In this document: positions 5,331 to 48,778 of the stretch, in pieces | Layout of the letters: every line of letters starts with the position of its first letter | Position numbering within the stretch: position 1 is the stretch's first letter | Origin: Terriglobia bacterium | GTDB taxonomy: Bacteria; Acidobacteriota; Terriglobia; 2-12-FULL-54-10 | Reading direction: 5' to 3' | Assembly (NCBI GenBank): GCA_963666975.2 | Contig: CAXVYR010000003.1 | Location: 672,001-736,000 of the forward strand | DNA length: 64,000 bases | Notes under the pieces: model-generated | Told to the model about the DNA's origin: nothing | Databases searched by the model: none | The model's input: only the letters and a program-made list of their open reading frames with translations | Translations under genes and position numbers: made by a program

Positions 5331-5564
5331 TCAAAGCAGGCTCAGAAATTCCTCGCCGGTCATCCCGGCATGTCGGATGAGCGCGCGAAGTGTCCCCACA
5401 GAAAGTTCCTTGTGCTGGGGAACCGGCTTGTCCCGAGCGAAGTCGAGGGGAAGGTTTACCCGGATTCCCGGCTTGACCATCACCAGATGACTCCCCACCT
5501 GCCCCAAGGCCCGCCATCCGGCCTTCTGGAAAGCCTTTGCCGCTTCCTTTATGGTGAGCCTGCC
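5331..5564 (-). pseudogene. hicA: HicA family toxin, start codon lost, with an in-frame 24-nt insertion
   Basis: Manual translation: GRLTIKEAAKAFQKAGWRALGQVGSHLVMVKPGIRVNL[PLDFARDK]PVPQHKELSVGTLRALIRHAGMTGEEFLSLL*. The GSH, VPxH and GTLRxxxRxAG HicA motifs are present. Confidence 0.85.
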
Positions 5565-5619
5565 GGCCTTGAGTCGGCAAGGCCGCTGGCATAAAATCTA
5601 AGGCCAAGCAACAATTAAT

Positions 5620-6946
5620 CCCGCATTTCCAGTTTGAAATCGTAGAAGCAACCTTCTGCTAACCTCCAACGTCAATATTGATGCTGGTTCGAGCAGCAAC
5701 ATTCCCTTCCGGAGGTTCACACCGAATGGGTGAGAGACAAAATCAGCCATTTCAACTCACTTTTAATGCCTCGTTGAAGGTCGCTTTCCACGGATCGAGG
5801 GTCACCTCCAACGGAGGGTTGATTCTGGTGCGGGAGTTGGACGAACGATTGGGATTCGGTGAACTCATCAAGCAGCACCTAGCCGATCCTCGGGGGAAGA
5901 ACACACGGTTGCCCCTCGCGGACCTGCTACGGCAGTCGGTGTACAGTCGCTTGGCTGGATACGAGGATGTGAACGATGCCGAGCAACTCTCACGAGATCC
6001 GACCTTCCGGCTGATCGGTTCCGAGAAGAATTGGGATCGAGGGGCAGCAGAAGCTGTGCAAGGAAGTGGTGTTTCGTGCCGACGCGGCCTTTGCCAAGCC
6101 GGAGGTTTACGAAGCGTTGGAGGAGCGGGGTGTGAAGTATGCCATCCGCATCCCTTCCAACGAGAACCTCCAGCGGGACATCGAGGAGTTGCTGAAACTT
6201 CCGGTAGGAAGGCCGGGCCAGAAGCCGTTGGTGGAGTACAAGGGGTTTCTGTACCAAGCCGAGAGTTGGAAGACGGCCCGACGGGTGGTAGCCAAGGTAG
6301 AACATCATCCGGGGGAGTTGTTCCCGCGAGTGGGGTTCATTGTGACGAATCTGACGCTTCCGAGTCGAGCGGTGGTGCGGTTCTATAATAAGCGCGGGAC
6401 GGCAGAGCAGTGGATCAAGGAGGGCAAGCAGGCAGTGAAGATGACGCGGCTCAGTTGCCATCGGTTCCGCTCCAACGAGGTACGGCTGTGGCTGACCATC
6501 ATTGCCTATAGTCTGGGAAATCTTTGGCGGCGGCTGGTGGTGCCACAGAGAATCGGGAACTGGTCCTTGACGAGCCTCCAGCAGCGGCTGGTGAAAACCG
6601 GAGGACGCCTGATTAAGCATGCCCGCTACTATTGGCTATTGCTGCAGAGAGCCATCTGACGAGACGTTTATTTGCTAGCATGCTGGGGCGAATAGATGGG
6701 CTGTCGCTTCCGTCGGGATAGCCCAGCCTGCGGCGCACCCAAGAAAATGATTCCGATATCCCCCAGGCATGGAGAGGTGTCTGCAAAAGCTGGTTCTGGA
6801 AGCCGAGGCGATGGGTTTTGGGGACTCGGAAAGAGCGGCTGGAAGCCGCTGGCAGTATCTCGGAGAAAATATTTGTCTGGAAGGGCTCAGTTGAAGGCCA
6901 ACGGATGTATACTCACGAGTCGGATGGGCCAAAAAACTAATTCCGG
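5620..6946 (+). mobile_element. IS1380 family element with internally deleted transposase (about 5726-6659); ends approximate
   Basis: N-terminal part (VTSNGGLILVRELDERLG, RLAGYEDVNDA) joins out of frame near 6045 to the C-terminal part (FRADAAF, FYNKRGTAEQWIKEGK). Confidence 0.85.
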
Positions 6947-14017: not shown

Positions 14018-14386
14018 ATGATGCAGCAATCGCATGGCGAAATTGACCAAAGGCGGTTCCACCGCTATGGTGTAAATTTCCCCTGCACGGTCAGGCCGGT
14101 GCGCAAGCGCAAAGGCTCCAAACCCCATGTGTTAACTGCAACGGCAATCGAAGCCGAGACAAAAGACGTGAGTACCGGGGGCTTCTACTTTGAGGTATCC
14201 GCCGACTGGAAGGTTGGAACGGAAATTGAGTGCACGATTCGTCTGCCGGTCAAGGCCTTCGGGGGACAGCCCGTAGCGATTCGCTGCCGCGGCAAGATCG
14301 CACGCGTTACAAAAAAAGACCCTGGAAGCATCGGCGTGGGGGCAACGATCGAACAGTTCGAGTTCCAGCATCTGGAAAAGAAGTGA
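14018..14386 (+). CDS. PilZ domain protein
   Basis: RRFHR and DVSTGG motifs. Confidence 0.85.
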   Translation: MMQQSHGEIDQRRFHRYGVNFPCTVRPVRKRKGSKPHVLTATAIEAETKDVSTGGFYFEVSADWKVGTEIECTIRLPVKAFGGQPVAIRCRGKIARVTKKDPGSIGVGATIEQFEFQHLEKK

Positions 14387-14441
14387 CGGCAGCCGGCCCC
14401 GCCGATTCCCTCTTCCAAACATCCGAACATCAATCGGACCT

Positions 14442-14564
14442 GAGAGGTTGTTGGAAAACTGGTGTATGGGTCCGCTTGCTAACCCCTCGGTTTCGCTCCC
14501 TTCGACTTCGCTCAGGACAGGCGGGACAGGCGCGCGCGGCTCGGATGGTTTTCACACAGGCTCT
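14442..14564. mobile_element. MITE/REP composite containing two nested 24-nt insertions
   Basis: Its first ~42 bp and the GCGCGCGGCTCGG block match 33870-33922; 14484-14531 is a 48-nt insertion relative to that copy. Confidence 0.75.
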
Positions 14565-14707
14565 GGAGCCGTCCGGCACAGAACGTCCCTCCCAAAATAC
14601 GCTGCCGCAGAGATTCCTCGTCTCTAAATCTGCTATGATTAGCGAACATTATTTCTTAAAATCGTTTCTTGAAAATTGTTTTTTGAAAAAGGAATCTTGG
14701 AAAAAAT

Positions 14708-15346
14708 ATGCGAGTTGCCGCAACAGAAACGTCAACATCCAGGACTTCGATCAATTCACTCTCGCCCATCAACTGTCTTTTAGGATTTACGGTTCTTTTG
14801 AGCGCCCTATGGATTCTGCCGGCCGCCCTGCTTGCTCAGGCATCCAACGGGCAAGGCACGCGGGTAGCATTAGGCTCCGTTTCCGGCGTTGCTAAAAGCC
14901 AGGTGATGGTCCCGCTGTACCTGACCCCTGATCCTCCGGATATCAAGGTGGGCAGCATATCAGCCGCTATTGGGTTTGAAACCAAAGCGGTGACTTTTCT
15001 AAAAGCGGAAGAAGGGTTCTTGCTCGATGGCGTCAACGCCGGCTTTGAGGCCGATCTTCAGCAGAATGCCGATGATCCCAACAAATCTATTCTGCTTTTG
15101 GAGGTTGCCACCGAAGGGGACGAGCGCAAGGCTTTGCGGGAAGGCCTGATCCTTTCGCTGATCTTTCGCGTAAATGATGACGCCCCGGAAGGAACGGTGG
15201 TCTCACTGGCTTTTGAGCAACTCGGAGCCAAGAACATCGAGGCTCCGCCCTCCGCGATTGAACCGCTATCCAGCCAAGATGGGACCATCGAGGTGATCCT
15301 GGAAGATGCGCTCCCCTATGTGGGTTGTTTTTTCTTTACGCATTAA
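14708..15346 (+). CDS. Exported cohesin-like beta-sandwich protein
   Basis: Signal/TM segment, then RVALGSVSG...VMVPLYL...LREGLILSLIFRVNDDAP...DGTIEV; ends YVGCFFFTH. Confidence 0.65.
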   Translation: MRVAATETSTSRTSINSLSPINCLLGFTVLLSALWILPAALLAQASNGQGTRVALGSVSGVAKSQVMVPLYLTPDPPDIKVGSISAAIGFETKAVTFLKAEEGFLLDGVNAGFEADLQQNADDPNKSILLLEVATEGDERKALREGLILSLIFRVNDDAPEGTVVSLAFEQLGAKNIEAPPSAIEPLSSQDGTIEVILEDALPYVGCFFFTH

Positions 15347-25895: not shown

Positions 25896-26095
25896 GAGCA
25901 GACCGCTCGACCGTGCGTGAACTACTTTTGAACCCGCGTAATACGGGCGGAGGCTCAACGTATCCCTTTAGGCTTCTCTGCCATTCCGCGCCGTCGCGTA
26001 TTAACAGAGCCTGCACACCGGAATCCAATCGACCCTCCATGTTGAAAGCATTAGCTCAAAAGTAATGCACTTACACATGCCTCGCAGTACTGCTC
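25896..26095 (-). ncRNA. ssrS: 6S RNA
   Basis: A ~200-nt long hairpin (GAGCAG/CTGCTC ends; TACTTTTGAGC/GTTCAAAAGTA stem) directly downstream of zapA, the usual position. Confidence 0.85.
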
Positions 26096-30401: not shown

Positions 30402-30430
30402 GCAGGTCCTTCGCTTCGCTCAGGATGACA
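30402..30430 (+). repeat. REP-like palindrome
   Basis: GCAGGTCCTTCGCTTCGCTCAGGATGACA between rplT and pheS; shares its core with the 24-nt unit at 14499. Confidence 0.6.
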
Positions 30431-33864: not shown

Positions 33865-33869
33865 CCTAA

Positions 33870-34001
33870 GAGGTTGTTGAAAAACCGGTGTATGGGTCCG
33901 CTTGCTAACGCGCGCGGCTCGGCAAGTGCAGCCGCAATCAGCACGCCCATTCCGAGCCGCGACCGCGAGGGAGCGGACAAATGGCGTTTTTCAACAACCG
34001 G
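33870..34001. mobile_element. MITE with a CTAA target duplication enclosing a REP doublet
   Basis: GGTTGTTGAAAAAC / GTTTTTCAACAACC perfect 14-bp IR; CTAA at 33866-69 and 34002-05; inner inverted pair GCGGCTCGG / CCGAGCCGC. Confidence 0.8.
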
Positions 34002-34151
34002 CTAAAATCTTAGCCGCACTCCCCTGCGCAGGGAATTTATTAGTTTAAACTACAAATGCTTTTCTGTCCTCAATAAGCAGGTGATGCGGAAGGCTCCTCC
34101 GCGGCTTGCTTCCATCTTTTTAACCGCATTCAACGGTGGGAATCAAGCCAA

Positions 34152-47860: not shown

Positions 47861-48778
47861 GTGGACCTGGTAAAAGTGGACAAAGTAAAAACCGCCGCCG
47901 AGGTGGTCCGCACCATCCCGGACGGCTCCCACATCGCTCTGGGCGGCTTTGCTATAGCCCGCAATGTAATCACCGTCGTCCACGAACTGATCCGCCAGCA
48001 GAAAAAAGCTCTAACCCTCTCCCAATGTGTCATGGGGATGGATACGGACCTGCTGGTCGGGGCCGGCTTGGTGAGCCGTCTGATGGTCGGCGGAGGGTCG
48101 CTCGACCGCTTTGGCCTGGTATACTGCGTGAACCGGGCGCGGGAGACGGGACAGGTCATCTCGCTGGACTACAGCAGCCTTTCCCTCTGCTTCGGCTATC
48201 TGGCCGGGGCGCTGGGCATTTCTTTTATTCCGATCAAATCGCTGCTGGCCTCCGAGGTGCTCGACCGGCTGGAGGCAGGACCCGGCGCCGAACATGTCCG
48301 GCGCATGCAGTGCCCCTTTACCGGAGAAGATTATCTGCTCTTGAAAGCCATCACTCCCGATGTTTCTCTGGTTCACGTGCAGGTGGCGGATCGCGAAGGA
48401 AACTGCCGGATTGACGGGCCACGCTGGGAAAATGAGGAGCAAGCAAAAGCAGCGCATCGAGTGATCGTCATCACGGAAGAACTGGTGCCGACCGAGCAGA
48501 TCCAGCGTTCTCCCGAGCGAACGGTGATCCCGGCACACCGGGTTGAGGCCGTCATTCACCAGCCCTTCGGCGCGCATCCCACGGCCGTTTTCGGCTGCTA
48601 TGACTACGATGCGGATCACTTAAAACTTTATGTGGAGCACGCCAGACATCCCGCGCGGATGAGGGAATATCTGGAAACTTACGTTATGAACACACGGAAT
48701 CATGAGGAATACCTGGGAAAAACCGGCGGCCTGAAGCATGTGAACAAGCTGAAAGCGAAGCCAGTCTTTGGCTATTGA
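47861..48778 (+). CDS. Family I CoA-transferase subunit A (glutaconate type)
   Basis: IPDGSHIALGGF, VHVQVADREGN, PFGAHPT. Confidence 0.9.
   Translation: MDLVKVDKVKTAAEVVRTIPDGSHIALGGFAIARNVITVVHELIRQQKKALTLSQCVMGMDTDLLVGAGLVSRLMVGGGSLDRFGLVYCVNRARETGQVISLDYSSLSLCFGYLAGALGISFIPIKSLLASEVLDRLEAGPGAEHVRRMQCPFTGEDYLLLKAITPDVSLVHVQVADREGNCRIDGPRWENEEQAKAAHRVIVITEELVPTEQIQRSPERTVIPAHRVEAVIHQPFGAHPTAVFGCYDYDADHLKLYVEHARHPARMREYLETYVMNTRNHEEYLGKTGGLKHVNKLKAKPVFGY

Follow-up and report, generated by a model that had tools for sequence, protein, structure and literature searches.

A 24-nucleotide repeat unit nested in REP hairpin loops of an acidobacterial genome, with copies in genes and viral contigs across many phyla

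The closest known elements to the repeat unit described here are the small dispersed repeats (SDRs) of cyanobacteria, from which it is set apart in this study by description and not by sequence. SDR1–8 of Nostoc punctiforme and its relatives, described by Elhai and colleagues in 2008, are reportedly 21–27 nt long, with some families nested within themselves, and are said to be essentially confined to one subgroup, the heterocyst-forming cyanobacteria; SDR4–6 reportedly have a common secondary structure supported by compensatory changes. A second point of comparison is the Rickettsia palindromic elements reported by Ogata and colleagues in 2000, which are said to lie in frame in protein genes. 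Like the unit, these are selfish repeats tolerated in coding sequence as an extra peptide; unlike the unit, which is asymmetric and about 24 nt long, they are reportedly palindromic, about 100–150 bp long and found in one genus. For SDR5, one article describes precise insertion inside HIP1 (PMC4390886). Repetitive extragenic palindromes (REP) and REPIN elements are reported to be mobilised by RAYTs (Nunvar, 2010, PMC2817692; Bertels and Rainey, 2011, PMC3116915), and the abstract of a preprint characterises REPIN–RAYT systems as lineage-specific and vertically inherited (bioRxiv 10.1101/2022.05.22.493013).

Full-text searches of the literature retrieved nothing relevant on the unit strings, on the peptides they encode or on small nested mobile repeats; about 1.7 million PubMed Central articles and all supplementary files lay outside the search, and a prior description is possible. 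The unit resembles the SDRs in its size class (21–27 nt), its dispersal, its location within other repeats and mini-transposons, its precise insertion at a fixed point, its self-nesting and its lack of an encoded protein. It differs from them in its presence in many phyla and in viral contigs, well beyond the heterocyst-forming cyanobacteria to which SDRs are reportedly restricted, and in frame in housekeeping genes. Compared with the structure reported for SDR4–6, the unit shows co-variation of positions 3 and 16 but is not predicted to fold stably, and its variants may simply represent two lineages. Like REP and REPIN sequences the unit is short, abundant, non-coding and non-autonomous, but the 24-mer itself is neither palindromic nor folded into a stem-loop; it is a passenger in REP loops that is also found in genes and across phyla. 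Miniature elements of the IS200/IS605 type have subterminal hairpins at both ends and a short fixed target or cleavage motif, whereas the unit has no hairpin and only a pyrimidine is conserved on its 5' side. Classical MITEs have terminal inverted repeats and target duplications of at least 2 bp, whereas the indels that the unit leaves are clean, with an ambiguity of at most 1 nt.

We analysed a window (the whole 64,000-nt stretch of DNA, C3:672001–736000) of a 4.23-Mb genome with 58% G+C in four contigs. At 33900–33922 the window reads gcttgctaac|gcgcgcggctcgg, with no unit at the bar. The same two flanks recur at 14470–14544, where they are kept apart by exactly 48 nt (14484–14531), as a sequence-only reading of this DNA had claimed. 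The 48-nt segment is made up of 15 nt (14484–14498, + strand), a complete 24-mer (14499–14522, + strand) and 9 nt (14523–14531, + strand), and once the inner 24-mer is removed the outer parts join into a second 24-mer that matches the consensus of the same family; the inner unit thus interrupts the outer one at its 15|9 site. The exact inner 24-mer is unique in the genome (one match with 0 mismatches) and has no identical donor elsewhere. It differs at 3 positions from a further copy in a HicA-like ORF, and none of 100 shuffles of the window contained such a match, in agreement with the earlier claim that a 24-mer had been split by a second one akin to the hicA insert. All three units of the window (outer, inner and HicA-like copy) are preceded by C, and the indels are clean to within 1 nt, so that two other points of the earlier reading, a C before each unit and no multi-base target duplication, also stand. 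The outer left half, ccctcggtttcgctc, is found in one other array among the nested arrays listed, where it holds a different inner unit (5/24 positions differ). The nested copy is intergenic, lying between an ORF end at 14386 and an ORF start at 14708.

An assembly artefact was ruled out. This organism is present in sequencing runs X1–X11. Four of these, each from a different study, contain a 5959-nt Logan contig that carries the 48-nt segment and spans 14453–15100 gap-free, with no differences over this interval in runs X1, X4 and X5 and one (at 14678) in run X8; the repeat arm upstream of 14453 is bridged by no Logan contig of the four runs. In G002, one of two same-genus genomes compared (G001 and G002), the match to this site ends at the repeat (query position 841) and continues on another contig. 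Local tandem duplication is also at odds with the segment: a head-to-tail array would be ordered left-right-left-right, whereas the halves at 14484–14531 are ordered left-left-right-right. Slippage of half-units is nevertheless seen at other arrays of this genome. Two side observations were made in the window: a 6S (SsrS) RNA at 25897–26093 on the minus strand (Rfam RF00013; 63.5 bits, gathering threshold 46.4), and a multi-copy stretch at about 5615–6000, probably an insertion sequence, with 41 listed matches at about 77–81% identity in G001 and 27 in G003.

The sequence around the nested copy belongs to a host repeat. Its left arm (14443–14483, + strand), present in many copies in the genome, ends in the 5' part of a REP1 hairpin with the loop taac, and the 3' part of that hairpin (gcgcgcggctcgg, 14532–14544, + strand) was recognised from the sequence and from a survey of REP spacers. 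The empty site, between 33909 and 33910, lies in a complete REPIN-like hairpin element (33866–34005, + strand) in which two inverted REPs and terminal arms form a long hairpin; its predicted fold has a free energy of −43.5 kcal/mol (z = −6.5), and equally good folds were found in 0/200 shuffles. Of this 140-nt element the copy at about 14430–14575 comprises no more than the left arm and a single REP, so that the earlier description of the unit as lying within a MITE is only half true there.

REP hairpin loops house the majority of the units of this genome, where insertion takes place at the loop's 3' edge (taac^gc). Spacers of REP1 are 7 nt long in 52 copies, 31 in 3 and 55 in about 6, with single copies at 77, 79 and 82 and also at 64 (55 + 9) and 70 (55 + 15). 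Those of REP2 are 7 nt long in 82 copies, 31 in 9, 32 in 4 and 55 in 5, and in the 32-nt class the unit is reversed and accompanied by one extra base, which places both orientations at one REP site. At least four further local hairpin families bear units in their loops, making at least six in the genome. Three Y1_Tnp-like ORFs were found, all of them outside the window, in line with the sequence-only reading, which placed no mobiliser there. Two of these (C4:1459682–1459891 and C4:1943957–1944235) have inverted REP2 copies on both sides, which is the classical RAYT arrangement and identifies the unit's hosts as REPIN-type repeats. Two inverted REPs in a long hairpin and a Y1 gene flanked by the same REP together point to a REPIN–RAYT system in this genome.

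Units were counted genome-wide by iterative removal of matches to the motif CCYTCGRCTNNGCTCRGGRCAGGC with at most 3 mismatches. The first pass yielded 100 units, and a further 43 (span 48 nt) and 9 (span 72 nt) were reconstituted across the gaps, giving a total of about 152 units in 99 clusters, of which 43 enclose one unit and 9 enclose two. A motif match at 48509–48521 of the window is a chance match and no unit. Among the 152 units, 17/24 positions are conserved at 95% or more, and the preceding base is C in 98, T in 52, G in 1 and A in 1, that is, a pyrimidine nearly always. The unit begins with CC and ends with GGC, without terminal repeats; its minimum free energy is 0 kcal/mol on both strands, with all 200 shuffles folding at least as well, and five of its six frames are open. 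The single shared length that had been claimed is not strict: 23-nt and 25-nt forms and gains or losses of half-units also occur. Sister families share the core CCYTCG-N4-6-GCTCRGG (118 in the genome versus 7 for the reversed control) and have other 3' tails, ATGACA/ATGACC in 15 copies and RTAAAC in 8. A search with this core bore out the related REP core noted earlier at 30407–30430 (+ strand), which has the same left part and stem and a different 3' tail.

For a half-unit parse, arrays were split into 15-nt left and 9-nt right halves and counted if they had at least one right half (n = 93). Left and right halves are balanced in 73/93 arrays (52 as 1+1, 14 as 2+2 and 7 as 3+3); the remaining 20/93 have an excess of one or the other half, which indicates that half-units commonly slip or grow independently. 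The units fall into two subtypes, CCC...G and CCT...A, that co-vary at positions 3 and 16, and 137/152 have a Watson–Crick combination there. When the halves of nested arrays are paired in nested order the combination at 3/16 is Watson–Crick in 92/113 pairs, compared with 48/113 when they are paired in the same order. Given the balanced halves and the nested pairing at 3/16, nested insertion of whole units with occasional loss or gain of a half-unit accounts for the arrays much better than does independent tandem growth.

The arrays also contain evidence of passive spread. Within a single repeat family, six or more copies contain depth-3 arrays with an identical subtype order, and among the commonest classes REP1 copies with GAT before the site were seen in filled form only. 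With near-identical copies of the outer unit and its REP elsewhere, in the same subtype order and with some REP variants seen only filled, the earlier count of three separate insertions is too strong for the outer unit, which was probably inherited together with its REP; discrete insertion at unrelated sites, and of the unit into itself, is upheld. Together with the unbalanced arrays, these observations favour an account in which the 24-mer has no mobility of its own, and one or a few ancient accidents were spread by REPIN/MITE amplification, by gene conversion between REPs and by slippage of 15-nt and 9-nt half-units. We consider this account very unlikely. It does not predict the order of the halves at 14484–14531, the preservation of the 3/16 match under nested pairing, an inner unit (14499–14522) with no identical genomic donor, or the presence of units in the loops of six or more hairpin families. 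Moreover, units are found at unique, non-repeat sites in many phyla, conserved genes included, so passive spread alone is insufficient.

Comparison of the surroundings of units between this genome and G001 and G002 revealed clean 24-nt differences between filled and empty sites, one of them nested. In G001 a unit fills a REP loop that is empty at the orthologous site here, and the two differ by exactly 24 nt with a one-base ambiguity (C). At C4:88447–88470 an inner unit is present here and the outer unit alone is present in G002, a clean 24-nt indel in nested position. A unit at C4:535608 is common to orthologous positions in this genome and a congener. The difference at a further orthologous comparison (L153) is 30 nt, not 24, and this case is therefore imprecise. 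The direction assigned to each of these indels is putative; for units borne by REPs, gene conversion between REP copies could mimic insertion. For the hicA region, a DNA-level orthologue is absent from G001, G002, G003 and G005. Exact matches number 53 in this genome, 5 and 16 in the two congeners (16 in G002) and 0 in 30/40 other relatives; overall the exact unit is present in 11/41 related genomes, and a backwards control pattern in none of the 41. Besides this genome, G005, G003, G002 and G027 are rich in units.

The sequence-only reading had proposed that the unit is moved by an HUH (RAYT/TnpA-like) enzyme, and this part of it fared poorly. According to this explanation an HUH (Y1) RAYT or an IS200/IS605-type transposase, acting in trans, cuts and pastes the 24-mer as single-stranded DNA. 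Insertion without target duplication, beside or inside hairpins, fits the chemistry of HUH enzymes such as those of IS608 and RAYTs, and is counted in favour of this explanation. So are the three Y1_Tnp-like ORFs of this genome, two of which lie between inverted copies of REP2, with such REPs being the main hosts of the unit, and the Y1_Tnp matches in 4/5 distant genomes that carry it. However, an enzyme of this kind would find no hairpin to grip in the unit, the preceding base is only a pyrimidine rather than part of a fixed tetranucleotide, and both orientations are found at one REP site. Orientation relative to local GC skew (57 units co-oriented and 42 anti-oriented, in a genome of four contigs) revealed no clear strand bias. 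Phylogenetic distribution is also discordant: Y1_Tnp is near-ubiquitous among the relatives (33/41) whereas the unit is patchy (11/41), and there is no Y1_Tnp match in two carriers, G002 (16 units, 83% complete) and G042 (2 units, no completeness figure). Movement of the unit itself by an HUH enzyme therefore appears unlikely.

An alternative is an RNA route, which Elhai and colleagues are said to have proposed for the cyanobacterial repeats; here a short RNA or transcript of the unit would be joined into another transcript or reverse-transcribed, and then fixed in DNA. Co-variation of positions 3 and 16 counts in favour of this route, in that 127 instances from outside this genome comprise 115 T-A, 10 C-G, 2 T-G and 0 C-A, so that T-G is tolerated and C-A absent. 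A variant with T at position 11, which would form a G-T wobble, is likewise common on the strand as written among the units of this genome, and the genome has one RVT_1 ORF of 551 residues, at C4:161224–161619. Head-to-tail tandem units with a period of 24 or 25, unlike the nested arrays here, were observed in genomes of an alphaproteobacterium, of Methylomirabilis and of an acidobacterium (L013, L056 and L036), and they too would suit this route. Yet no stable fold is predicted for the unit, and the co-variation may reflect just two propagated subfamilies. There is no RVT_1 match in the carriers G042 and G045 (for which there are no completeness figures), and the unit is present in both orientations relative to its host repeats and in five reading frames. 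We regard an RNA route as improbable.

Copies inside genes were read in relation to the proteins that they extend. Units are depleted from long reading frames: 61% lie under an ORF of at least 150 residues, versus 87–89% at control positions. Five frames and either orientation are used, within unrelated genes. In-frame units were found within Pfam domains PEPcase (1000 bits), CN_hydrolase, Reg_prop propeller, PSCyt2 and GAF, in DNA_ligase_A_N (the N-terminal domain of ATP-dependent DNA ligase) and in a HicA-like ORF. The PEP carboxylase gene of locus L106 has two units, both missing from homologues 68–82% identical, which substantiates the earlier suggestion that the unit can add 8-aa peptides to proteins. 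That at L106:339–362 corresponds to a gain of 8 residues relative to most of eight such homologues (7 to 9 gap columns); that at L106:1560–1583 is within a gain of 14 residues, with a gap of 8 residues opposite it in E. coli PEPC (1fiy). This second unit is bordered by an 8-nt inverted repeat, and the same protein has an additional, unrelated 13-residue insertion relative to these homologues. The unit in the DNA ligase adds no length compared with the 2hiv ligase.

In a flavobacterial isolate (G043) an in-frame unit lies in metG, the gene for MetRS (L235:1217–1240), with pieces of related repeats beside it. An IS200-like Y1_Tnp gene starts about 800 nt downstream. This proximity is probably a coincidence, given that metG itself holds the unit and that copies of another palindrome come after the Y1 gene. 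The HicA-like copy of the window occupies 5426–5449 on the minus strand, in frame (Pfam HicA_toxin, 29.5 bits), and a weak alignment of the ORF to 4p78_C (E = 0.7) has a 7-residue gap opposite the insert. As listed, this ORF starts with TTG and spans 5331–5507 (minus strand), with conserved N-terminal residues running upstream to about 5570. HicA-typical residues thus precede the TTG within the frame 5331–5597 (minus strand), where there is no ATG, GTG or TTG. From its sequence the ORF may be a decaying pseudogene or may use a rare start codon, and given the former the insert cannot be taken as a demonstration that a HicA-like protein tolerates it.

To assess the wider distribution, one-genome-per-species contigs totalling 596 billion bases were scanned with an exact motif of 18 fixed and 4 two-fold positions. 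At least 120 genome stretches matched exactly, against a chance expectation estimated at about 1. By record title, the 80 listed matches represent at least 15 phylum-level groups. Acidobacteriota are the most represented, and the matches listed further include Chloroflexota, Nitrospirota, Bacteroidota, Rhodothermales, Verrucomicrobiota and Kiritimatiellota; also among them are Planctomycetota, Gemmatimonadota, Patescibacteria, Cyanobacteria (Nostoc), Methylomirabilis, Binatia, Dormiibacterota, Eremiobacterota, Latescibacterota and several proteobacterial classes. Five distant carrier genomes have 1–3 exact copies each, and the one Nostoc genome examined has one. Another carrier, L025, is titled as an Edaphobacter isolate. 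Eight Y1_Tnp matches were recorded in G044, a 0.9-Mb Curtissbacteria genome. Among viral contigs 74 stretches contain the unit, and some of these are nested, at the 15|9 site in L176, L178 and L214 and at a 10|14 site in L163 and L221; none of the 151 units in the 120 listed genome loci is nested. In 127 instances from many phyla the preceding base is C in 107, T in 17, G in 2 and A in 1, and the following base is T in 85/127. A perfect flanking inverted repeat of at least 7 nt is present in just 17/126 instances in other genomes (1–7 of about 120 at six offset controls), so hairpin loops are a preference and not a rule.

Conservation of this kind might indicate that the 24-mer has a function, for example in protein binding or as a regulatory RNA element, and that selection keeps a motif of independent origin or retention rather than selfish DNA. 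Recurrence in many phyla, strong conservation at 17 of the 24 positions and depletion from long ORFs are what such a motif would produce. We find this extremely hard to credit, however, for a sequence that nests within itself, is patchy even among close relatives and occurs in either orientation and five frames of unrelated genes; a search of Rfam, moreover, gave no family for the region, whether gathering scores or a cut-off as loose as E = 10 were applied. As a source of the cross-phylum identity, ribosomal or another universal RNA seems unlikely, such a context being apparent in none of the 110 fuzzy genome matches listed.

The explanation that we favour, and consider probable though well short of certain, is that the 24-mer is a discrete insertion module, non-coding and non-palindromic, which has moved in the evolutionarily recent past, mobilised in trans by a copy-in process and secondarily multiplied by the RAYT–REPIN system. 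As judged from the alignments, the unit appears to be added as a single 24-nt piece, occasionally of 23 or 25, directly 3' of a pyrimidine, usually C, with a target duplication of at most one base and in either orientation. Its targets appear to be the loops of REPs and other hairpins, a fixed point within earlier copies (following base 15, more rarely base 10 or 11) and occasionally genes, where the copy would be read through as 8 extra residues. In this genome there would have been a few primary insertions into REP loops, after which the filled loops would have multiplied passively as RAYT-associated REP/REPIN repeats spread, and slippage of 15-nt or 9-nt half-units would have reshaped the arrays later. 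Nesting would follow because an inserted unit is unstructured and so offers a bigger unpaired loop, together with the preferred ...CTC^ site. The enzyme would act in trans and be encoded away from the unit: an all-against-all comparison of 4065 ORFs from 120 loci revealed no recurrent neighbour protein, the largest family being present at 10/120 loci, and from this we infer trans-mobilisation. A copy-in process on unpaired DNA is our best guess, with hairpin-guided HUH transposition of the unit itself less likely. Counted against this explanation is the near-identity of the unit across phyla, which is hard to account for without frequent horizontal transfer or strong sequence constraint, both hypothetical.

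A broader proposal is that asymmetric, unstructured 'nano-insertions' of about 24 nt, near-identical in bacteria of more than a dozen phyla and in phages and devoid of terminal repeats, target duplication, hairpin and gene, are pasted 3' of a pyrimidine in unpaired DNA by widely available machinery. We put this forward tentatively, as an idea that we would sooner expect to fail than to hold. The unit's difference from the SDRs lies in the phylum-wide spread, the phage contigs and the in-frame copies in housekeeping genes. Inserted into a repeat, into itself and into a gene, and recurring in many phyla, it has the behaviour of a mobile element near the lower extreme of known sizes. The patchy copy number, 53 exact matches here and none in most relatives, makes a hunt for the mobiliser by phylogenetic profile feasible. 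As a practical matter, the unit is a clean presence/absence marker for strain comparison, and it brings with it recurrent 8-residue insertions, spurious annotated ORFs and breaks in short-read assemblies at repeats. Should a structureless, gene-less 24-nt sequence indeed move, ideas on how small mobile DNA can be and on how it is recognised would need revision, and some conserved or horizontally travelling enzyme would have to read the unit. If the nano-insertion proposal is true, these units would constitute a class of mobile DNA outside any described transposition mechanism, one from which proteins such as PEP carboxylase and MetRS would routinely acquire a peptide of 8 residues.
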